A stretch of 64,000 bases of DNA from an uncultured bacterium (GTDB lineage: Bacteria > Bacillota > Clostridia > Oscillospirales > CAG-272): the NCBI GenBank assembly GCA_949293405.1, contig CASFDI010000067.1:534-64533 (forward strand). Reading direction: 5' to 3'. The notes beneath the pieces are model-generated. The model was not told the DNA's origin. It worked only from the letters and a program-made list of their open reading frames with translations, and made no database searches. A program made the translations under genes and the position numbers. This document shows positions 12,332-62,422 of the stretch, piece by piece. Within the stretch, counting starts at the first letter, position 1, and every line of letters begins with the position of its first letter.

Positions 12332-12606
12332 ATAATTTCATCAAAGGCGTTGATGGAGAGAAGTACTGCGGAAGAGCGTTTACAGTGAGTGCGGGAGAGT
12401 GTGAACCGCAAAACGGCGTCCGCACGAATAACACTCCGGAGCCGCAATCTGAACGCAGGAATGTCAGTAGGTGCGCCGGTTATCCCCCGTCATCGGGAAG
12501 GGACTTGACAGAGTCCTGTGAGTGGCTGCAGATGCAGCAAGATAGGTGGTACCGCGGGAGCATGCCTCACCGTCCTATGAAGAGGACGGAGGCATGCCCT
12601 TTTGTT
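12332..12606 (+). promoter_or_regulatory. T-box leader (tRNA-Asn specifier) with terminator/antiterminator
   Basis: Stem-I elements are present (GATGGAGAG...GTA, AGTGAG...GGGAGAG). The candidate specifier GAAUAACAC (12426-12434) contains AAU and AAC, each followed by A. The conserved T-box sequence AGATAGGTGGTACCGCGGGAG lies at 12539-12560. A terminator hairpin at 12560-12606 ends in CTTTTGTT. Confidence 0.85.
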
Positions 12607-32004: not shown

Positions 32005-32189
32005 CATTGTCAAGTCAGGGGTGCGCTCCGGCGCTGAGACAGGCTCCGCCTGAACCCTTCGTACCTGATACGGATCATGCCGTCGTAGGGAGATTTTGCA
32101 GCAGATACCGGGAGGCTCCGCTGGGTGAGGGCGTGCCTGCCGTATCTTCCGGAACTTCAACCGCACGGTGACCGTGCGGTTTTCTGTTT
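32005..32189 (+). promoter_or_regulatory. TPP (THI-box) riboswitch with terminator expression platform
   Basis: Conserved elements GGGGTGC, CTGAGA, ACCCTT and ACCTGATACGGATCATGCCGTCGTAGGGA. The terminator is AACCGCACGG-tga-CCGTGCGGTT followed by TTCTGTTT (32159-32189). Confidence 0.9.
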
Positions 32190-32937: not shown

Positions 32938-33320
32938 TGCGTCGGAAGACGGCGCGGTCGCGCGGTATGGTGCCGAAAGGTATTACCGTGAGGAAAGTCC
33001 GGGCTTCACAGGGTAAGGATAACGGATAACATCCGCCGAGGGTAACCTCAGGGAGAGTGCAACAGAAATATACCGCCGGCTCAGGCCGGTAAGGGTGGAA
33101 CGGCGAGGTAAGAGCTCACCGGGTCTTCCGGTAACGGTTGACCCCTGTAAACCCTATCCGAAGCAACGCCTGCGGGAGAGCCGAAAGGTTGCGGTACCCG
33201 CCGAAATCCTGCTGGCGGCAGGAGGCATGCCTCCGAGCCATCCGGTGACGGGTGGCAAAGATAGATGATCGCGGTTCGCATATGCGTTCACAGAACCCGG
33301 CTTACATGTTTTCCGACATT
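32938..33320 (+). ncRNA. rnpB: RNase P RNA (bacterial, type A-like)
   Basis: Universal blocks GAGGAAAGTCCGGGC (about 32989), GGTAAGAGCTCACC and ACAGAACCCGGCTTA (about 33291). P1 pairs GTCGGAA (32941-) with TTCCGAC (-33317). Confidence 0.92.
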
Positions 33321-53046: not shown

Positions 53047-53075
53047 TTGACAAAAAATGCAGAAGGCGATATAAT
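53047..53075 (+). promoter_or_regulatory. sigma-A-type consensus promoter of the nine-gene transporter operon
   Basis: TTGACA (53047-53052), a 17-nt spacer and TATAAT (53070-53075). The leader carries a hairpin GTCG-gca-ACAAACTG/CAGTTTGT-CGAC (53086-53124), followed at 53135 by T6. Confidence 0.7.
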
Positions 53076-53162
53076 TTGTTAAAGAGTCGGCAACAAACTG
53101 TAATAAATATTGCAGTTTGTCGACTGATTTCACATTTTTTGCCATGCGAAAGGAGTCCGATT

Positions 53163-53990
53163 ATGAAAAGACTTTTTGCAGTTTTGCTGGTTCTGTCACT
53201 TGTGCTGACCGTGCTTGCCGGATGCGGTACAGACGCAGACCAGACCACTCCTGCCACGACCACGACAGGGGCGGCAACACCCGACCCGATCACAACCGAA
53301 TATTCCTTTGTCGCCGGATACGAAAAAGAGATCGATATGGGCGGCACAGTGGTTTCGACGCAGGCATCTGTCCTGATGAATCTGTACAGTGACAACACCG
53401 CCGAGATTTACATCGGGTATATGGGCATGGGCGGATACTCCTCCGCATGCTATGAGGGCACCTACACCATGACGCCTGATCTTGATGAACTGGATCTCAG
53501 TCTGACCTATACATACACCAGCGGAGAAGAAGAGCAGACCGCTACCATTGATACCACGCTTGTCGGGTTCAGTTTTGACGCTTCCGTCTTTCTGATTGCC
53601 TCCTTCCCCTCTGAGCCGCTGACCTTCTATGAAATCCCTCCCGTGACGCTTGGCGAAGGAGACGGTTATGTCGGCATTCTGGTCAAAACTACCGGTATGG
53701 GCGAAATGATTTACGCTTACTATCTGGAAATGAACGGTGACAATACCTTTACGGTTGCGGCCCTGCAGCACGCCGCGGTTATGCACATCGCGGAAACCCA
53801 GAACGGCACATATACCCGCGACGGCGAGACGGTTGTATTCACCTACGATGTGATGGGAGACGGCGAAGTGCAGGCTGAAGACCACACCTCGACCTGTTCT
53901 GATTTCGCAGAACAGACGCTGACGGTCGGCTTCAATGTCGGCCAGGCAGGCACCCCCACCACCCCCGCGCCTTTCATCAAAGTAAAATAA
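53163..53990 (+). CDS. hypothetical lipoprotein (lipocalin-like motifs)
   Basis: Lipobox LTVLAGCG, then a Thr/Pro-rich linker and beta-rich repeats with DNTFTV ... GTYTRDGETVVFTYD. RBS AAAGGAG. Confidence 0.6.
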   Translation: MKRLFAVLLVLSLVLTVLAGCGTDADQTTPATTTTGAATPDPITTEYSFVAGYEKEIDMGGTVVSTQASVLMNLYSDNTAEIYIGYMGMGGYSSACYEGTYTMTPDLDELDLSLTYTYTSGEEEQTATIDTTLVGFSFDASVFLIASFPSEPLTFYEIPPVTLGEGDGYVGILVKTTGMGEMIYAYYLEMNGDNTFTVAALQHAAVMHIAETQNGTYTRDGETVVFTYDVMGDGEVQAEDHTSTCSDFAEQTLTVGFNVGQAGTPTTPAPFIKVK

Positions 53991-54028: not shown

Positions 54029-54727
54029 ATGGGAAGAGAAAGAAACGAACAGGGCGAGCTCAACCGCTTTTTCCGCTGGGCATACAGCACCCGTGCAAAG
54101 AATGTACAGGCGATGGCCGACGGCGCAATGCAGCGCGGCGAAATGACGCCTGAGAAAATGTTCCTCAGCTTTACCTCACACGACCCGACATTCATCAGCA
54201 ACGGCCCCGCCGGACTCAACGGCTCTGTCAAGGGAATCGGTTTTATTCCCCGCGAGGAATATCTGCAGGCCGCATTGGAAGCATATATTGCTCATATCCG
54301 CACCTTTGACCCGGATGACAAGACCTACAGCGACCGCGGCCTGAAACTGCTCATCAAGTGGCTCTATAGCGAAGAAGCCGAAAAGACGATTGATTTCGAG
54401 CATATCTACAGCGTGGAAATGGCCTTTAAGCACAGCTACGAAAACTATAAAGTCAACCCGGAAGCTACACTGGTCTTCTATCAGCCGCCTGTCATCAGTT
54501 ATGAAGTACGCGGAAAAATGGAGATTATCGGCGAACATCATGAGAAGGGATCGGTTTCCCCGTTTGAGCTGCCCGTTCTGCAACAGTTTGTCAACGCACA
54601 GCACGATGTCTACCATTATCCCAACATTGAGCGCTGGGTCACCCGCCCGGTTTATAAATTCACGGTTGAAGAGATCTTCGATAACTCGGCCAACCAGAAC
54701 GGCTTCGGGACCCAAATTCCATACTGA
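54029..54727 (+). CDS. hypothetical cytoplasmic protein (possible split-barrel fold; weak guess)
   Basis: 232 aa, no signal peptide. RBS AAAGGAG. The segment NPEATLVFYQPPVISYEVRGKMEIIGE resembles PNPOx/HugZ-type split barrels. This is not verifiable by eye. Confidence 0.5.
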   Translation: MGRERNEQGELNRFFRWAYSTRAKNVQAMADGAMQRGEMTPEKMFLSFTSHDPTFISNGPAGLNGSVKGIGFIPREEYLQAALEAYIAHIRTFDPDDKTYSDRGLKLLIKWLYSEEAEKTIDFEHIYSVEMAFKHSYENYKVNPEATLVFYQPPVISYEVRGKMEIIGEHHEKGSVSPFELPVLQQFVNAQHDVYHYPNIERWVTRPVYKFTVEEIFDNSANQNGFGTQIPY

Positions 54728-54744
54728 AGATCCGGAGATATAGC

Positions 54745-56652
54745 ATGAAAGCCAAACGATTGCTCTGCCTGCTGCTTGCCGCACTGATGCTGGCCGGTAG
54801 CTGTCTGCTCTTTGCGGGCTGCGGGCGGGAAGAAAAATATGCGGGAGCGTTGGTGATCGGATCGTCCACCCTCCCGAAAAACCTCAATCCCTACTCTTCC
54901 ACCTCTTCCACTTTCTTTGTGGATCTGTTTTATGACACCCTGCTGGGGGCGGCTGCTACACCTGTCGGTTACACTGCCGATCCGGAAAACTTCCGCTTTC
55001 CGGACGGCAGTACCTTCACCCCGGTCGATACCAGCAACAACCCGCTCGCCTTCACGGATAATCTGCTGTCCTACGAAGGAGCACTTCCCCGCCCGGACGG
55101 TTCGGATTACGGATATGTATACTTTGATCCCACAGAGGAGCAGTGGGAAGAACAGTGCGAACGCGAATCGATCCGCGAAGGCTTCGATGAAGTCGGACTT
55201 CCGATTGAGGAAACCCACGAAGAGTTTCTCGCACGTGCGGAAGAGACGGTTCCGCGGGAAAACTGGATGGAATTCCGGTTTGCAGTGCGTCCGGGATACA
55301 CCTGGAACGACGGCACGCCTTTTACCGCAGAAGACATCAAGTTTACCTTCGACTACATCATCAGACACAAGGCGGAGCTCTCCAGTCAGGCATACTTCCT
55401 GACCGACTACTACCAGAGCTCTGTGGAAGAAGACGGTGACTTCGTCTTTATCCTGGCGTCCAACAACTACTCTGCCATGAAATCGATCTGCAACAGTATT
55501 GTGATTCTGCCCCAGCATATCTGGCAGACTGTGCGTAAGCCCCAGGAAGAAAAGAACCTGAACCCGGTAGGCACAGGCCCCTACTACCTCAAGGCGGAAG
55601 ACTACATTGCAGACAGTTCGATCACGGTTACCATCCGCGACGACTACAATGAAGCGCTGCTCAGGGAGGATTTTGCAGGAGAGCCGGTTGCCAATATCAG
55701 CGTGCAGCTGATGAGCAATCTGGATGTACTGATCCAGTCCCTGCAGCAGGGTGATATCCATATGATTATGGACACCATCGACACAACAAAGGCCTATCAG
55801 GTCATGAATAATTCCGCATACAGCAATATTGACATGTCCTCGACCCGCAACGACTTTGTCACCACGCTGCTCTTCAATGTGGGGCCTTACGGCGCTTTCC
55901 GGGAAGGCGAACTCAACGGCTACTCCCAGCAGATCCGTGAAGCGATTTCCCTGTGTATCGATCAGCAGTCCCTGATTTCCGAGGTGCTCTTCGGAATGGG
56001 CACCACGGTAGGCGACGGTCTGGTGCAGTCTTATATGGCGCATGCCCTGGTAGATGAAAACGGAAATTATGTGGAGCACCACACCGATGTTGCTGCGGCA
56101 AACGCCCTGCTTGACACTACCACCTATCTGAAAGATGCGGACGGATACCGCGGTCTGACCTTTACCGTCCTTGCTTCTCCCGAACAGGAGACGCTTGTCC
56201 GTGCCATCGGCAACCAGCTCGCCGCCATCGGAATCCGCCTGGAATACGAAATGGCGACAAGCACCTATGCCGAGGACATCAAGCAGTACAATCATGCCGA
56301 TTTTGACATGATTCTCAACTCGGTGACCTTCGGCGCGGATAAACTGCTGATGTTCAGCGCACGGTACGGCACCTACAATACCGGCAGCCCGCGTGTATTC
56401 AACTACTCCGGCGTTATCGACGAAGAACTGAACGAGCTGATGCTTCAGATGGAGCGCACCGCAAATACACAGCAGCAATACGAACTCAGCCGCGAAGTAC
56501 AGGCGCGCATTGCTGAGCTGGCCGTTGAAATTCCCTTGTTCTCGCAAAACATGATCACCTTTTATTCAGACAGCGTATTCAGCGGATGGATCGAAACCGA
56601 AGGCTCATCCATCTGGAACGGATACACCCTGCGTTATCTGAAAGTAAACTGA
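54745..56652 (+). CDS. ABC transporter substrate-binding lipoprotein, family 5 (Opp/Dpp/Nik type)
   Basis: Lipobox LLFAGCG. 635 aa. It has family-5 blocks (RPGYTWNDGTPFTAEDIKFTFDY, GTGPYYLK). Confidence 0.85.
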   Translation: MKAKRLLCLLLAALMLAGSCLLFAGCGREEKYAGALVIGSSTLPKNLNPYSSTSSTFFVDLFYDTLLGAAATPVGYTADPENFRFPDGSTFTPVDTSNNPLAFTDNLLSYEGALPRPDGSDYGYVYFDPTEEQWEEQCERESIREGFDEVGLPIEETHEEFLARAEETVPRENWMEFRFAVRPGYTWNDGTPFTAEDIKFTFDYIIRHKAELSSQAYFLTDYYQSSVEEDGDFVFILASNNYSAMKSICNSIVILPQHIWQTVRKPQEEKNLNPVGTGPYYLKAEDYIADSSITVTIRDDYNEALLREDFAGEPVANISVQLMSNLDVLIQSLQQGDIHMIMDTIDTTKAYQVMNNSAYSNIDMSSTRNDFVTTLLFNVGPYGAFREGELNGYSQQIREAISLCIDQQSLISEVLFGMGTTVGDGLVQSYMAHALVDENGNYVEHHTDVAAANALLDTTTYLKDADGYRGLTFTVLASPEQETLVRAIGNQLAAIGIRLEYEMATSTYAEDIKQYNHADFDMILNSVTFGADKLLMFSARYGTYNTGSPRVFNYSGVIDEELNELMLQMERTANTQQQYELSREVQARIAELAVEIPLFSQNMITFYSDSVFSGWIETEGSSIWNGYTLRYLKVN

Positions 56653-56708
56653 TCACATCGTCCGAAACCCGGCTGTGCCGGGTTTCGCTTTAGAGAGGAA
56701 CCACCGCT

Positions 56709-57815
56709 ATGAAGCGATATTATGCCCAGAAACTGATCAGCGCGGTTTTTGTACTCTTCATTATCATCACGCTGAACTTTTTCCTGCCACGAATGATGTT
56801 CGACGATCCGGCGCAGCCCTACTACGCCGGTGTGCCGGAGGACGCCTATGCTCTCCGCCAGGAGATCCGGGAAGCCAACGGATTCAACGATCCTCTGATC
56901 GTACAGTACGGCGCATATCTCGGGCGCCTGTTCACACTGAATTTCGGCACTTCTTACATATATAAGGAGCCGGTTTTCCAGGTGATGTTCTCGCGGATCC
57001 CATGGTCACTGGTCATAACGCTGACCTCCATGGTCGTGTCGGTCATTGTTGGAATCCTGATCGGTGCCTATGTCGGTAAGAGACGCGAGATGACTGCCGA
57101 TAAAGTTCTGCTCGGCTTTTCCACCGTGACCACTGCCATCCCGTCTTTCTGGCTGGCACTGGTTTCTATCATGCTGCTGGCATTTATCATTCCGATCTTC
57201 CCGTACCGTGGTGCCATGACTCCCGGCTATACACTGGGATTCCATACAATACCGTTTCTGGTGGTGTTCTTGCTTTTCATTGCGGCAGCCATTGCTCTGC
57301 GGATTATTTTACGGAAATCGATTTTCCTCTTCACCGTGATTCCCGCCGGCTTGCTGGTTGCCCTGCTGGTTGCTGTTCCCCCGGCGGATGTTCTGGATGT
57401 CCTCTACCATGCAGCCCTGCCCCTCATCGTTGTCATTTTCGGCAGTTGTATTTCCTACTCCCTGCTGGTGCGCAACAGCATGATTGCGGTCACATCGGAA
57501 GACTACATCCTGACTGCCCGGGCCAAAGGGTTGCCGCCTCGTGTGGTACTCTATAAACATACTTTCCGCAACGCGCTGCTTCCCCTGATCACCAATGTCG
57601 GCATGTCCCTGTCCGGACTGATCGGTGGATCGGTCCTGATTGAAAAGATTTTCAGCTGGCCCGGAATGGGACAGTTGCTTCTGGAGGCTACCAACAACGG
57701 CGACTATCTGCTTTCCCAGGCGATTCTGCTGCTTTTCGCTATTCTGACCATTACCTTCAACCTGATTACCGATCTTGTATACCATAAATTTGACCCGCGG
57801 GTCACCCGCGCGTGA
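56709..57815 (+). CDS. ABC transporter permease (OppB/DppB/NikB-like)
   Basis: N-terminal YYAQKLISAVFVLFIIITLNFFLPR pattern and the EAA-loop region (DYILTARAKGLPPRVVLYKHTFRNAL). Confidence 0.88.
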   Translation: MKRYYAQKLISAVFVLFIIITLNFFLPRMMFDDPAQPYYAGVPEDAYALRQEIREANGFNDPLIVQYGAYLGRLFTLNFGTSYIYKEPVFQVMFSRIPWSLVITLTSMVVSVIVGILIGAYVGKRREMTADKVLLGFSTVTTAIPSFWLALVSIMLLAFIIPIFPYRGAMTPGYTLGFHTIPFLVVFLLFIAAAIALRIILRKSIFLFTVIPAGLLVALLVAVPPADVLDVLYHAALPLIVVIFGSCISYSLLVRNSMIAVTSEDYILTARAKGLPPRVVLYKHTFRNALLPLITNVGMSLSGLIGGSVLIEKIFSWPGMGQLLLEATNNGDYLLSQAILLLFAILTITFNLITDLVYHKFDPRVTRA

Positions 57816-57830
57816 GAAGGAGGAGCCGAT

Positions 57831-58853
57831 ATGGAAAAAGCAAAAAAAATTGCCTCATCGGTCGGTGCCGCCTGCGCGCGTGCAGGAATTGCAATCGGAC
57901 GCCTGTTTGCGAAGATCTGGAAGAATCCCAAGGGCAGACGGGGACTGATCATGGTGGGAATCGTAGTGCTTGCGGCACTGCTGGCACCTATCCTTACCCC
58001 CTACGATCTGCACGAGTACAATGTAACGGAGGGGTTGCAGCAGCCTTCCTTCTCCCACTGGCTCGGGACCGACAAGAACGGTGTCGACATTATGACCCAG
58101 GTTCTCTACGGTGCCCGCATTTCCCTGATTATCGGCATCACAACCGGCATTTCGGTCACTTTGCTGGGCGCCATCATGGGAATCATGTCCGCCTATTTCG
58201 GAAAAGTGCTCAGCGTCACCATTCTCAATCTGATCAATGTCCTGCTGGTGGTGCCTACCCTGCCGCTGATGATGGTACTTTCCAATATTTCATCCAGTTA
58301 TGTGATGATGATCCTGATTTTCACCCTCTTCGGCTGGTGCGGTACCGCCCGCATGATCCGTGCGCAGGTACTTTCCATTGTCAACATGAACTATGTGCGC
58401 GCCGCCGAGTTGTCGGGCGCAAGCAAAAGCTACATCATGTTCCGCCACATCATGCCGGCGGTTGCACACCTTCTGATCATGAACTGCGCGCTCTCCTGCG
58501 CGGGCTTCATGGTGGCGGAAGCGGGACTCAGCTTTATCGGGTTGGGTGATGCTTCGGTCATGAGTTGGGGTAAAATTCTGGTTGCCGCAGAACGCGATGC
58601 CTTTACCTCCGGTCTGTGGGCCTGGGTGCTCGCGCCCGGCGTTGCCATTTTCTTCACGGTATTTGGCTTTATGCAGGTGGGATATGCCCTGGAAGAAATA
58701 TTCAACCCGCGTGTCAAGCGGAAGAAAACTTCGTCCAAAGATTCCCGCTCGGCCACAGAGTCTGCTGATGCGATTTTTGCCTCTATGGAAGACCTGCCGC
58801 TCGAAGATGCCAAAACACTGAAAGAAGCCTACCTGAAAGGAGAAACACACTGA
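57831..58853 (+). CDS. ABC transporter permease (OppC/DppC/NikC-like)
   Basis: HWLGTDKNGVDIMTQVLYGARISL and NYVRAAELSGASKSYIMFRHIMP blocks. An extra charged C-terminal tail is present. Confidence 0.88.
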   Translation: MEKAKKIASSVGAACARAGIAIGRLFAKIWKNPKGRRGLIMVGIVVLAALLAPILTPYDLHEYNVTEGLQQPSFSHWLGTDKNGVDIMTQVLYGARISLIIGITTGISVTLLGAIMGIMSAYFGKVLSVTILNLINVLLVVPTLPLMMVLSNISSSYVMMILIFTLFGWCGTARMIRAQVLSIVNMNYVRAAELSGASKSYIMFRHIMPAVAHLLIMNCALSCAGFMVAEAGLSFIGLGDASVMSWGKILVAAERDAFTSGLWAWVLAPGVAIFFTVFGFMQVGYALEEIFNPRVKRKKTSSKDSRSATESADAIFASMEDLPLEDAKTLKEAYLKGETH

Positions 58854-59887
58854 TGCAACCCGTATTGGATATACACGGTCTGAAAGTGCTGTTCCGGGTG
58901 GGCAACACCTATATCCGTGCCGTAGAAGGAGTGGATATCACGGTCGGAGAAGGTGAAAGCGTGGCAATCGTGGGTGAATCGGGATGCGGCAAAAGCGTCA
59001 CCGGACTTGCCTGTATGAAACTGCTTGCCCAGCAGAACGCAGTCTATACCGCCAAGAAAATGACCCTTCAGACCAAGGACGGCCATGTTCACGACCTGCT
59101 GTCCGAAAGCGAAAACGGTATGCTCGCCCTGCGTGCTGAACAGATCGCAATGATTTTCCAGGATCCGTCCACCTTTCTCAATCCGGTCATGACGGTAGGA
59201 GAACAGATGGATGAAGTCTTCCTGTATCACCCGGGAGCAGTCACACAGGAGGACGGAAAAGCCGCGCACAAACTTTCGCGCGACGAGGCGAAACGTCTTT
59301 CACTTGAGCAGTTCCGGCGCGTGGGGATCCCTGACCCGGAAATGCGTTACAAACAGTTTCCCCATGAGCTGTCAGGCGGACTGAAGCAACGCATTCTGAT
59401 CGCTATGGCAACAGCTTGCAAACCGCGGCTGCTGATTGCAGACGAACCCACAACCGCCCTTGATGTGACCATTCAGGCACAGATACTGGATCTGATCACT
59501 ACTCTGCGCCGCGAAAGCGGCATGTCCCTGCTGATGATCACCCATGATCTGGGCGTTGTCCGCGCGGTCGCGGAACGCTGCTATGTCATGTACTGCGGCA
59601 AGATTGTGGAGCATGGCTATGTGCGCGACATTCTTGAGCATCCGCTTCACCCGTATACCAAGGCGCTGATCGATACGGTCCCCGGACTTGACGACCGGGT
59701 GGAACGGTTTGTGCAGATTCCGCACAATGTGCCTCACCCCTCGCAGAAGCCTTCCGGATGCTTTTTTTCCAACCGGTGCGCCTTTTGCACCGGGATCTGC
59801 CAGAGTGCCATGCCGCCCCTGCGGGAACCGGTACCCGGCCGGCAGACCCGGTGCTGGTTTGATAAGGAGGAGTTATGGGAGAAATAA
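58853..59887 (+). CDS. ABC transporter ATP-binding protein (OppD/DppD-like)
   Basis: Walker A GESGCGKS, signature LSGGLKQR and Walker B LIADEPTTALD, plus the C-terminal Opp-type Cys-containing extension. Confidence 0.9.
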   Translation: MQPVLDIHGLKVLFRVGNTYIRAVEGVDITVGEGESVAIVGESGCGKSVTGLACMKLLAQQNAVYTAKKMTLQTKDGHVHDLLSESENGMLALRAEQIAMIFQDPSTFLNPVMTVGEQMDEVFLYHPGAVTQEDGKAAHKLSRDEAKRLSLEQFRRVGIPDPEMRYKQFPHELSGGLKQRILIAMATACKPRLLIADEPTTALDVTIQAQILDLITTLRRESGMSLLMITHDLGVVRAVAERCYVMYCGKIVEHGYVRDILEHPLHPYTKALIDTVPGLDDRVERFVQIPHNVPHPSQKPSGCFFSNRCAFCTGICQSAMPPLREPVPGRQTRCWFDKEELWEK

Positions 59888-60864
59888 TCCTGTCCACAAA
59901 CGAACTTTCGGTTGACTTCCGCATCCAGAACAAGGTTTTCGGTTCTCCCGATATCCTCTCGGCTGTCAGCAAAGTAAACCTGCAGATTGAACGGGGCGAA
60001 ATTTTCGGCCTGGTCGGTGAATCCGGATGCGGCAAAACCACTTTGGCGAACGCTATTCTCGGCTTTGTCAAGCCGACCGCCGGCTCAGTTTCCTTTATGG
60101 GTCATACTCTCACCCGGACCACTTCCCCGAAGGTGTGGAGACAGGCTCGGCGCAATATGCAGATGGTCTTCCAGGACCCCTACACCTCGCTTGACGCGCG
60201 TATGCCGGTCTGGCAGCTGGTCAGCGAACCGCTGTATATCAACGGAGAGCGCAATGAGCATGTCCTGAGGGAACGCGCAGAGGAACTTCTGTTGCGCGTC
60301 GGTCTCGGCCGGGACGATCTGGACCGGCATGTATTTGAGTTTTCAGGCGGACAGCGGCAGCGCATTGCCATTGCGCGTGCGCTGATCGGTGGGGCAAAAT
60401 TCATCGTCTGCGACGAGCCGGTGTCGGCCCTGGATGTTTCGGTCCACTCCCAGATCTGCAATCTGCTGCTCGATCTGCAGCAGGAAATGGAACTGACTTA
60501 TCTGTTCATCTCACATAATCTTTCCCTGATCAAGCACATTACCAAACATATGGCGGTGATGTATCTGGGCACGGTTCTTGAATGCGGCAGTACCGAGGAG
60601 ATTTTCCGTTCACCGGAATGCCCCTATACACAAGCCCTGATTTCTTCCATTCTGCAACTGCATCCTACAGCAGATACGCAGAAGATTATCCTGCGTGGCG
60701 AAGCGACAAGCCCGGTCAACGCGCCTCTCACCTGCCGGTTTGCCTCCCGGTGCAGTGCGGCCTGTGAAAAGTGCAGAACCGCTCCCCTGCCCCCACTGAC
60801 CAATATCGGGAATGACCATTTTACCAGTTGTCATCTGGCATTGCAGGAGGGATCACATGAATAA
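59875..60864 (+). CDS. ABC transporter ATP-binding protein (OppF/DppF-like)
   Basis: Walker A GESGCGKTT, signature FSGGQRQR and Walker B IVCDEPVSALD. It overlaps the preceding gene by 13 nt. Confidence 0.9.
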   Translation: MGEIILSTNELSVDFRIQNKVFGSPDILSAVSKVNLQIERGEIFGLVGESGCGKTTLANAILGFVKPTAGSVSFMGHTLTRTTSPKVWRQARRNMQMVFQDPYTSLDARMPVWQLVSEPLYINGERNEHVLRERAEELLLRVGLGRDDLDRHVFEFSGGQRQRIAIARALIGGAKFIVCDEPVSALDVSVHSQICNLLLDLQQEMELTYLFISHNLSLIKHITKHMAVMYLGTVLECGSTEEIFRSPECPYTQALISSILQLHPTADTQKIILRGEATSPVNAPLTCRFASRCSAACEKCRTAPLPPLTNIGNDHFTSCHLALQEGSHE

Positions 60865-61543
60865 CAACACGCAGCATCCCCCTTGCCCCTGCAAACCGCA
60901 GTGTCCGCATTACGGACATTGCCGCGACTGCATTGAGGCACATCGGAAGTACTATACGCCCCCCTTCTGCGTCCGGCAGATGCAGAAGGAAATGAAAGAA
61001 AAGCATCTGCACCCGATCAATCCACATCAGAAGACTACACTCACCGAACGGATTGAAACTTTTTACCGGGAGCATCCCGACGAACACCTGCGCTCGGTTG
61101 CACAGGCGCTCGGTATCACCGAGTGGCAGCTGCTGGATGCCATGACCGGTGCGATACCGGTCCCGACAGCGGACTACCCCGCTATCTATGACCGGCTGGC
61201 AGGGCTGCATGCCGTGCTGCTGCATCTGGATACCGGAGCGGTGATCTTTCAACTGGAAACCGCACTGCCGCCGCGGACAGAGATGCACGAGGCGCACCTG
61301 CTCCGGAAAGCCTCAGACGGAATGTCCATGACCGCCCTGCTCTTCCCGCAGAATCTGTACGCCGCCTTTCTGGTGCGTGAACAACTGTACGGCAAGGAGA
61401 GCCTGAGTCTGGCGCTGGTAGGAGAAGACGAACGGATTGCCCTTTCCTTCTATCTGCGCCGCGACGCACAGGGCGTGATGGACACTGCATCCAAAGAGCT
61501 GTTTCTGGATCTGTGGAAGCACTATGCCCCGACAGAATCGTAA
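60857..61543 (+). CDS. fusion protein: N-terminal Cys-rich small domain plus C-terminal ChuX/HutX-like (heme-utilisation carrier-like) domain
   Basis: The start overlaps the OppF-like stop by 8 nt. RBS AGGAGGGA. The N-terminus is PPCPCKPQCPHYGHCRDCIEAHRKYYTPPFC. The C-terminal roughly 160 aa parallels V. cholerae HutX block by block (see findings). Confidence 0.6.
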   Translation: MNNNTQHPPCPCKPQCPHYGHCRDCIEAHRKYYTPPFCVRQMQKEMKEKHLHPINPHQKTTLTERIETFYREHPDEHLRSVAQALGITEWQLLDAMTGAIPVPTADYPAIYDRLAGLHAVLLHLDTGAVIFQLETALPPRTEMHEAHLLRKASDGMSMTALLFPQNLYAAFLVREQLYGKESLSLALVGEDERIALSFYLRRDAQGVMDTASKELFLDLWKHYAPTES

Positions 61544-61576: not shown

Positions 61577-62422
61577 ATGAAAAAGTTCTGGCTGACAACA
61601 CTGGCCCTGCTCTGTCTTCTGGCCCTGCTCGCCTCCTGCGGCGGAACGGAGACCGGCACTACTACGGCAGGTACCACCCCTGATGCAGGCACTACGGCGC
61701 CTGAAAACACCACAGCCCCCGATCAAACCACAGCGCCCACCGAAACAACCCCCGGCACGACTGCCCCCGAAGCCCCCACGACCTCTGAAAAGGAACTGGC
61801 AGCCGGTATCTATGAAACCACCATCACCCCCGAGGGTATGCCCATGTCCTTCGCCATTCACCTGACCGTCAAGGCGGACAACACCTTTGTCCTCTCCAAC
61901 GGCACCGATGAAAAGGGCAGCGGCACCTGGGCGGTTGCAGACGGTGTTTATACCCTGGATTTCGGCAATGAGAAGACCTCGCGCTTTGTCGTACTGGCAA
62001 ACGATGATCTCTTCTTCCTCGACAGCCTGCCCTACGGCGCCGCTTCTGTTTCCATTGACTCGGTGGACGAGATCCGCATTCCGCTGACTTCCCGCATTTC
62101 CGAGAAGACGCTGGCGACCGGCATTTACGAAACCACCATCACCCCTGAGGGCATGCCCATGTCCTTCGCCATTCACCTGACCGTCAAGGCGGACAATACC
62201 TTTGTCCTCTCCAACGGCACCGATGAAAAAGGCAGCGGCACCTGGGCGGTTGGTGCCAACGGCGTCTACACGCTCGATTTCGGCAATGAGAAGACCTCAC
62301 GCTTTGTCGTTCTGGCAAACGATGATCTCTTCTTCCTCGACAGCCTGCCCTACGGCGCGGCTTCGGTCTCCATTGACTCAGTGGACGAGATCCGGATCCC
62401 GCGTACCGGAGATGTTCAGTAA
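61577..62422 (+). CDS. lipoprotein with a Thr/Pro-rich linker and two tandem ~100-aa lipocalin-like modules
   Basis: Lipobox LLASCGG, then a T/P/A-rich linker (residues about 24-70), then two near-identical modules. RBS AAAGGAG. Confidence 0.75.
   Translation: MKKFWLTTLALLCLLALLASCGGTETGTTTAGTTPDAGTTAPENTTAPDQTTAPTETTPGTTAPEAPTTSEKELAAGIYETTITPEGMPMSFAIHLTVKADNTFVLSNGTDEKGSGTWAVADGVYTLDFGNEKTSRFVVLANDDLFFLDSLPYGAASVSIDSVDEIRIPLTSRISEKTLATGIYETTITPEGMPMSFAIHLTVKADNTFVLSNGTDEKGSGTWAVGANGVYTLDFGNEKTSRFVVLANDDLFFLDSLPYGAASVSIDSVDEIRIPRTGDVQ
61787..62401 (+). repeat. intragenic tandem duplication (2 x about 300 nt, period 315 nt)
   Basis: Core copy 1 is 61805-62083 and core copy 2 is 62120-62401. 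My manual codon alignment gives about 20 synonymous third-position differences and one replaced patch (AD versus GAN). Confidence 0.9.

Follow-up and report, generated by a model that had tools for sequence, protein, structure and literature searches.

What does a protein do that joins a Cys-rich module to a domain of the haem-carrier type, and whose gene lies within the operon of an importer? The question is raised by a gene at positions 60857-61543 of a 64,000-nucleotide stretch of DNA from an uncultured clostridial bacterium (Oscillospirales, CAG-272; GenBank assembly GCA_949293405.1, contig CASFDI010000067.1, positions 534 to 64,533, forward strand), hereafter called the window. The product of this gene, P0001, had been singled out in a preliminary description of the window as an unusual fusion attached to an ATP-binding cassette (ABC) importer. 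The two-part protein is real, conserved and hitherto undescribed. From its domain identities, fold, conservation and synteny, I infer with moderate confidence that it is a cytoplasmic acceptor or carrier of what the importer brings in, probably haem or some other metal chelate.

What is new here is a protein of the ChuX/HutX fold that lacks the family histidine and carries an added, putatively metal-binding module of the DUF6485 type. The fusion gives a first functional context to DUF6485, an uncharacterised Cys-rich family of many anaerobes: natural fusion to a haem-carrier fold within an importer operon is a Rosetta-stone clue that makes a metal or tetrapyrrole role of DUF6485 testable. The importance of the finding rests mainly on this context and on a possibly new anaerobic way of handling an imported metal-organic cofactor.

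The fusion gene and its coupling to the second ATPase gene

60857..61543, + strand: DUF6485-like/ChuX-like fusion gene encoding P0001 (open reading frame, translation, homologues)
60846..60864, + strand: junction of the ATPase and fusion genes (AGGAGG at 60846-60851, ATG at 60857, ATPase stop at 60862-60864)

The fusion gene comprises 228 codons on the plus strand and specifies a product of 228 residues. Its start lies within the end of the second ABC ATPase gene (59875-60864, stop codon TAA at 60862-60864): reading the sequence bears out the earlier statement that the ATG at 60857 sits inside the OppF-like gene with an overlap of 8 nt. A ribosome-binding site, AGGAGG, is found 6 nt 5' of this ATG. 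Homologues begin about nine residues ahead of the first Cys, and 60857 is therefore the likely start; a longer frame with an ATG at 60812 was considered and is unsupported, since homologues begin at the later point. In relatives, the ATPase and fusion genes are separated by 2-3 nt. Overlapping or abutting frames thus predict that the fusion protein is made together with the last ATPase.

The ChuX/HutX fold of the C-terminal domain

61049..61531, + strand: diverged ChuX/HutX-fold domain, residues ~65-225 (Pfam, NCBIfam, PDB profile, Foldseek, alignment A6)

The likeness of the C-terminal ~160 residues to ChuX and HutX, noticed in the preliminary description, was confirmed by Pfam, by NCBIfam, by a profile search of the PDB and by the predicted fold. 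The Pfam family PF06228 (ChuX_HutX) matches residues 82-205 over profile positions 1-123 of 134, at 27.7 bits for a gathering threshold of 25 bits, and most homologues bear a precomputed PF06228 label. The NCBIfam model TIGR04108 (HutX) aligns positions 4-152 of its 154 with residues 69-217 (42.2 bits, E 7e-11); the HutX blocks quoted in the preliminary description likewise agree with the sequence of 5exv in the HMMER alignment. When a profile of 25 family members was compared with the PDB, it retrieved ChuX (2ovi and 6u9j, E 7e-8) and HutX (5exv, E 4e-6), along with AGR_C_4470 (2hqv) and 2ph0. The AlphaFold2 model of P0001 has a mean predicted local distance difference test score (pLDDT) of 84.5 and a predicted template-modelling score (pTM) of 0.78. 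Submitted to Foldseek, it matched 6u9j, 2ovi and 5exv with E values of 1e-12 to 4e-11, target-normalised template-modelling scores of 0.88-0.90 and a root-mean-square deviation of about 2 A, in agreement with the ChuX/HutX architecture of N-terminal helices and a large antiparallel sheet. Next in the ranking came HemS, ChuS and PhuS, which have two lobes (E 3e-7 to 3e-6). Those fold matches among solved structures that have a named function are haem proteins. Given the agreement of Pfam, NCBIfam, PDB profile and predicted fold, the ChuX/HutX fold assignment is secure, and P0001 is, as judged by sequence comparison, a homologue of HutX but not an equivalog.

With ChuX of E. coli O157:H7 (2ovi, 6u9j) and HutX of V. 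cholerae (5exv), both of which carry haem in the cytoplasm, P0001 shares a fold over ~160 residues and a detectable homology. It differs from them in being only 18-20% identical, in lacking the G-H-[IL] His and the G-Y-[FY]-N motif discussed below, and in carrying an extra Cys-rich domain of 60 residues followed by a His-rich linker. It also differs in its setting: P0001 is tied to a family-5 importer of the Opp type, belongs to a Gram-positive lineage and has no ChuW/HutW partner; ChuX and HutX are linked to ChuA or HutA with a ChuTUV-type system. HemS, ChuS and PhuS are haem-binding proteins made of two ChuX-like halves, on which the ChuX-like lobe of P0001 superposes; P0001 has a single lobe, no equivalent of the axial His and another partner domain at its N-terminus.

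The N-terminal Cys-rich module

60884..60970, + strand: Cys-rich core, residues 10-38, a predicted metal site in a divergent DUF6485 module (invariant columns, PF20095 profile evidence)
61004..61027, + strand: fusion-specific His-rich linker, H50-L-H52-P-x-N-P-H57 (alignment A4)

Residues 10-38 of P0001 read C-P-C-K-P-Q-C-P-H-Y-G-H-C-R-D-C-I-E-A-H-R-K-Y-Y-T-P-P-F-C. The Cys/His pattern reported earlier is present, with nine such residues instead of eight and a last spacer of eight residues instead of nine: C10-x-C12-x3-C16-P-H18-x-G-H21-C22-x2-C25-x3-H29-x8-C38. All six Cys of the protein lie within these 29 residues and none in the remaining 168 residues. With the Cys frequency of the operon (1.45%) as background, the probability of at least six Cys per 29 residues is 3e-6.

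Conservation within the fusion family sharpens the picture. Across 15 N-terminal domains, C10, C12, C16, G20, C22, R23, C25, H29, P36 and C38 are invariant, which gives a core pattern of C-x-C-x3-C-x3-G-x-C-R-x-C-x3-H-x8-C. The invariance of the core, six Cys and one His, extends to P0103, the most distant fusion, which is ~35% identical overall. Conservation of the pattern, which the preliminary description had left to be checked, thus holds for the six Cys and H29 and fails for H18, which is N or H in most relatives, and for H21, which is K in most of them. Alignment A4 shows four invariant linker residues, H50, H52, P56 and H57 (family form H-x-H-P-x-N-P-H), and the three His of this set are likewise unchanged in all 15 domains, P0103 included.

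To which family does the module belong? The N-terminus of P0001 matched no Pfam family, PF20095 (DUF6485; threshold 24 bits) included. Among the N-terminal domains of the 15 relatives, ten gave PF20095 matches, all of them weak (best E 0.009). When a profile of the N-terminal domains was run against 5.8 billion proteins, it returned small stand-alone Cys-rich proteins that share the motif G-K-C-R-E-C-[IV]-A-x-H, as well as P0243, a protein of 63 residues that itself passes the PF20095 threshold with 26.8 bits. Alignment of the fusion N-terminal domains with the stand-alone relatives by hhalign gave a probability of 98.5% and an E value of 2.6e-15. The canonical DUF6485 sequence, C-T-C-T-Y-x-C-S-R-H-G-K-C-C-E-C-V-A-Y-H-R-x2-G-E-[IV]-P-G-C, has its ligands in the same order as P0001, and the signature C-x-C-x3/4-C-x3-G-K-C-(C/R)-E-C-[IV]-A-x-H-x8-C is common to both. 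P0001 differs from the family in scoring below the Pfam threshold and in being joined to a ChuX-like domain, canonical members being stand-alone proteins of ~65 residues; most fusion members have a spacing shorter by one residue, and stand-alone DUF6485 proteins lack the His-rich linker. These comparisons identify the module (residues ~8-60), at the level of sequence, as a divergent DUF6485 domain.

The earlier suggestion of a Cys-rich small domain known from a cobalamin context did not survive. That family, PF04071, is also a short Cys-rich module, but it gave no match at E <= 10 with P0001, with its N-terminal 76 residues or with the 15 relatives, so that P0001 is not a member.

In the AlphaFold2 model, one helix opens with C22-x2-C25-x3-H29 and the helix that follows opens with C38. 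This layout is typical of metal-binding knuckles and suggests that the module is one. The six invariant Cys and the invariant His most likely hold a metal, either Zn or an iron-sulphur (Fe-S) cluster. A profile search for a solved structure of the N-terminal domain found none.

Distribution of the fusion

Homologues of the same length as P0001 form about 100 clusters at 90% identity; at 50% identity these reduce to essentially one cluster plus the distant P0103 (35%). The fusion is found in 24 of about 185,000 species genomes scanned, and the joining of the two domains pointed out in the preliminary description is thereby upheld. All 24 carriers are uncultured metagenome-assembled genomes labelled Clostridia, Oscillospiraceae, Eubacteriales or other clostridial groups, and where the isolate name states a source, this is ruminant gut or faeces. 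Of the 151 genomes in the family of the source organism, two carry the fusion; it is missing from two genomes of the organism's own genus. The host genome (1.9 Mb, 92% complete) contains no other ChuX_HutX gene. A search for a plasmid origin of the locus gave no match, and its GC content bears no sign of recent transfer.

In a sample of 300 genomes from across the class, DUF6485 itself was detected in 28, nearly always in open frames of 62-94 residues, and control genomes that match it include those of Thermotoga maritima and Methanocaldococcus jannaschii. DUF6485 is thus normally a stand-alone protein, and the fusion is therefore exceptional. The contexts of stand-alone DUF6485 genes are uninformative, one lying beside a ribosomal-protein cluster and one near a C_GCAxxG_C_C gene. 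In locus L037 (5463-5762), a gene of the latter, putatively redox-active type immediately precedes a stand-alone DUF6485-like gene, and another follows the importer operon in locus L001 (11881-12408); both placements may be coincidence.

Databases name the homologues 'hypothetical' or 'putative heme iron utilization protein'. Literature searches returned nothing relevant on the fusion or on Opp-linked haem uptake in anaerobic Firmicutes, and no paper mentioning DUF6485, in keeping with the earlier view that the architecture is undescribed.

The importer operon and its split-barrel protein

53163..53990, + strand: first lipoprotein, lipobox LAGC, with lipocalin-like relatives at the same position (open reading frame, conserved position)
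54029..54727, + strand: 232-residue cytoplasmic PNPOx-like split-barrel protein, candidate recipient of the cargo (AlphaFold2, Foldseek, PNPOx_N)
54745..60864, + strand: family-5 (Opp/Nik-type) ABC importer, consisting of a substrate-binding lipoprotein, two permeases and two ATPases (Pfam, synteny)
61577..62422, + strand: last lipoprotein, with two NlpE-N/lipocalin-like modules (Pfam NlpE and Lipocalin_4, conserved position)

Attachment of the fusion to an importer, as noted earlier, is a constant feature. Gene content and gene order are identical in every locus with enough flank, with nine genes in all: a lipoprotein, the 232-residue protein, the family-5 substrate-binding lipoprotein, two permeases, two ATPases, the fusion and a second lipoprotein. 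Orthologues at the position of the first lipoprotein give weak Lipocalin_4 matches. The substrate-binding protein (54745-56652) has weak NCBIfam matches to NikA and CntA; binding proteins of family 5 (DppA, MppA, HbpA, NikA) include haem binders. Both OppD/F-type ATPases have Cys-rich oligo_HPY C-termini, GCFFSNRCAFCTGIC...RCW (~59740-59860) and CRFASRCSAACEKC...SCH (~60720-60850); in some Opp systems, tails of this kind bind an Fe-S cluster.

The lineage of locus L002 has, besides the fusion, a second and stand-alone ChuX_HutX gene (1840-2403) that heads the same operon. Its product keeps the motif G-G-H-I and carries a His-containing insertion; a comparable His-rich insertion, up to HDHDHDHHHG, is found in P0106. 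I take these insertions to resemble those of Ni/Zn chaperones. It follows from this additional gene that the importer has recruited a ChuX-type protein twice.

The most conserved gene of the operon is that of the 232-residue protein, which is 74-80% identical across loci, compared with ~55% for the fusion, and has a mean column identity of 89%. Neither Pfam nor NCBIfam assigned it to a family at the thresholds applied; PNPOx_N matches weakly in 18 of 32 homologues. Its AlphaFold2 model (pLDDT 93.7) is a split barrel whose nearest Foldseek neighbours are generic PNPOx-like proteins. Also among the neighbours are HupZ, a streptococcal haem protein, At3g03890, a haem-bound plant protein of the HugZ-like type, PipS, a haem enzyme, and Rv2074, an F420-dependent biliverdin reductase. 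HutZ and HugZ share this fold class. A split-barrel partner, putatively haem-binding, is present in the operon and strictly co-conserved with the fusion, much as hutX occurs in an uptake operon with hutZ.

The split-barrel family comprises more than 220 clusters at 90% identity, and its pairing with a family-5 importer is far more widespread than the fusion. It is unnamed in Pfam and NCBIfam, and is worth describing separately. In all six of the more distant loci examined (Clostridia, Izemoplasmatales, Spirochaetia), its gene stands directly before a family-5 importer, and operons of this kind that have no ChuX gene often include lipocalin-like lipoproteins. In three operons without the ChuX fusion, L028 (12848-13237), L049 (15544-15984) and L050 (15612-15989), the gene next after the second ATPase gene encodes a small multi-pass membrane protein of ~107-146 residues. 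The start of the membrane-protein gene overlaps the ATPase stop in L049, in L050 and in one L028 gene model, and lies ~50 nt downstream in the other L028 model.

A possible carrier of imported cargo

The favoured model is that the fusion would take the imported cargo at the cytoplasmic face of the importer, this cargo being most probably haem, or else another metal-tetrapyrrole or metal chelate. It would then pass the cargo to the highly conserved PNPOx-like split-barrel protein, whose gene lies near the operon's 5' end. The Cys/His module would either supply ligands that are missing from the diverged ChuX pocket, or handle the metal. HutX delivers haem to HutZ through direct protein contact (PMC6775658), a parallel to the proposed hand-over to the split-barrel protein.

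Is the genomic background compatible with a need for imported tetrapyrroles? ALAD (HemB) is absent from the host genome and from five relatives, which therefore cannot make tetrapyrroles. However, ALAD, cytochrome bd and HutW are lacking in genomes with and without the operon alike, so this background does not discriminate. The carrier model is backed by the ChuX/HutX fold, the strict synteny with the importer, the split-barrel partner, the double recruitment of ChuX and the tetrapyrrole auxotrophy, and I give it about an even chance of being correct. Its weakest link is the identity of the ligand.

Several observations weigh against the carrier model. The first concerns the pocket, which was compared in alignment A6 (seven fusion proteins, four stand-alone Firmicute-type relatives and four solved proteins). 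The His of the G-H-[IL] motif, H98 in ChuX, is present in all eight non-fusion members; in all seven fusions it is replaced by Ala, Ser or Glu, P0001 having M-T-A-L at this position. Another motif, G-Y-[FY]-N, which the solved proteins share, is replaced in the fusions as well, and the position of ChuX H65 is occupied by D125 in P0001. Two residues before D125, on the same strand, stands H123, which is nearly invariant. In 2009, Suits et al. reportedly implicated both H65 and H98 of ChuX in haem coordination. Since the canonical His is lost, haem binding cannot be inherited from the family name. Moreover, the score of 42 bits misses the 110-bit equivalog cut-off of TIGR04108, and this, with the marginal Pfam score, means that the ligand may have changed.

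The second group of observations concerns the setting. Among solved structures, those closest to the substrate-binding protein belong to binders of chitin, manno- or cello-oligosaccharides rather than of haem or nickel. Other Clostridia, Izemoplasmatales and Spirochaetia have the split-barrel protein and the importer without a ChuX-like gene, and in three of the six ChuX-less loci examined the place behind the second ATPase gene is taken by a gene for a small membrane protein. No enzyme of the HutW/ChuW type scored above the family cut-off in the host or the five relatives. Cytochrome bd was not found in these genomes either, so that no haem-requiring function was identified in them. Finally, the operon and four related loci contain no riboswitch, and no Fur-type box is recognisable.

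The two outcomes would be of interest for different reasons. If the ligand is haem, uncultured gut Firmicutes would have a route of uptake and processing that is unlike the Isd, Hmu/Chu and ChuW systems. Should the ligand be something else, the fusion would be the first known member of the ChuX/HemS fold that has been re-purposed for another ligand.

Alternative functions

The second of these outcomes is the alternative that survives best, and I regard it as possible, if doubtful. The cargo would be something other than a tetrapyrrole, for instance an oligosaccharide, a metabolite resembling a peptide, a compound resembling a flavin, or a Ni, Co or Zn metallophore. The ChuX-like pocket would have been re-purposed for this cargo or for the released metal, with the Cys/His module acting as a metallochaperone. 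Loss of the canonical ChuX/HutX His, the marginal family scores, the oligosaccharide-binding relatives of the substrate-binding protein (with its weak NikA and CntA matches) and the wide occurrence of the core operon without a ChuX gene are all consistent with it. So are the His-rich insertions of the stand-alone ChuX of L002 and of P0106, which are of the kind seen in Ni/Zn chaperones. What argues for haem instead is that all HemS/ChuX-fold proteins characterised so far bind it (PMC10404700). Furthermore, the solved structures sharing the fold that have a named function are haem proteins, and two independent recruitments of ChuX, together with a HupZ/HugZ-like partner, fit haem best.

A more specific proposal, which I consider unlikely, keeps haem or another metal-tetrapyrrole as the ligand and makes the fusion an anaerobic processing factor. 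The Cys6His module, as an Fe-S or a thiolate/His site, and the linker would replace the lost axial ligands, and the fusion might take part in removing or transferring the metal reductively, together with the PNPOx-like partner. Were this so, tetrapyrrole-auxotrophic gut anaerobes would obtain the metal without oxygen and without a radical S-adenosylmethionine (SAM) enzyme of the ChuW type, and the widespread DUF6485 would have its first function.

Could the fusion, rather than carrying cargo, be a sensor or regulator? In this case the ChuX-like domain would sense a ligand, and the zinc-finger-like module, with the start of the ChuX domain, which resembles a helix-turn-helix (HTH), would bind palindromes of the operon, or else would bind the ATPase and so throttle import. 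The operon contains no regulator gene, and its promoter region does offer candidate operators.

53047..53120, + strand: operon promoter and inverted repeat (sequence reading)

The promoter, TTGACA-17-TATAAT at 53047-53075, is a perfect sigma-70 promoter (12 of 12 matches) that precedes the first lipoprotein gene. Starting 18 nt past the -10 box, an inverted repeat with 12-bp arms, ACAAACTGTAAT-AAAT-ATTGCAGTTTGT, occupies 53093-53120 and could be an operator or a hairpin of the 5' untranslated region (5'UTR). A different palindrome, GTTAG-N6-CTAAC, is found in 14 loci that carry the fusion (L001, L007-L010, L015-L018, L021 and L023-L026). It recurs about the -35 box and within the 5'UTR, some 50-250 nt ahead of the gene for the first lipoprotein. 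Neither the window nor the ChuX-less operons contain this palindrome, which is likely to be the operator of some regulator. In addition, P0103 has a weak HTH_PafC match in the segment corresponding to this start of the ChuX domain, and the related haem protein PhuS is presented as a DNA-binding regulator in a title cited in PMC12670364.

Other evidence makes a regulatory role improbable. The candidate operator of the window differs from that of the relatives although the Cys/His residues are invariant. No DNA-binding family was matched significantly, and stand-alone DUF6485 proteins show no regulatory link. The tight coupling to the ATPase gene, moreover, suggests that the two products are made in matched amounts, which suits a partner in transport better than a low-copy regulator.

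That the fusion is an artefact, in which gene calling or assembly joined two neighbours or a Cys cluster arose by chance, is scarcely conceivable, since a single uninterrupted frame of the same length recurs in the ~100 clusters and 24 species genomes from independent assemblies, and the Cys pattern is invariant and improbable from composition (P = 3e-6).

Structured RNAs of the window

An Rfam scan of the window located a T-box leader at 12341-12580, a thiamine pyrophosphate (TPP) riboswitch at 32007-32108 and an RNase P RNA at 32942-33320, all of them unrelated to the fusion.

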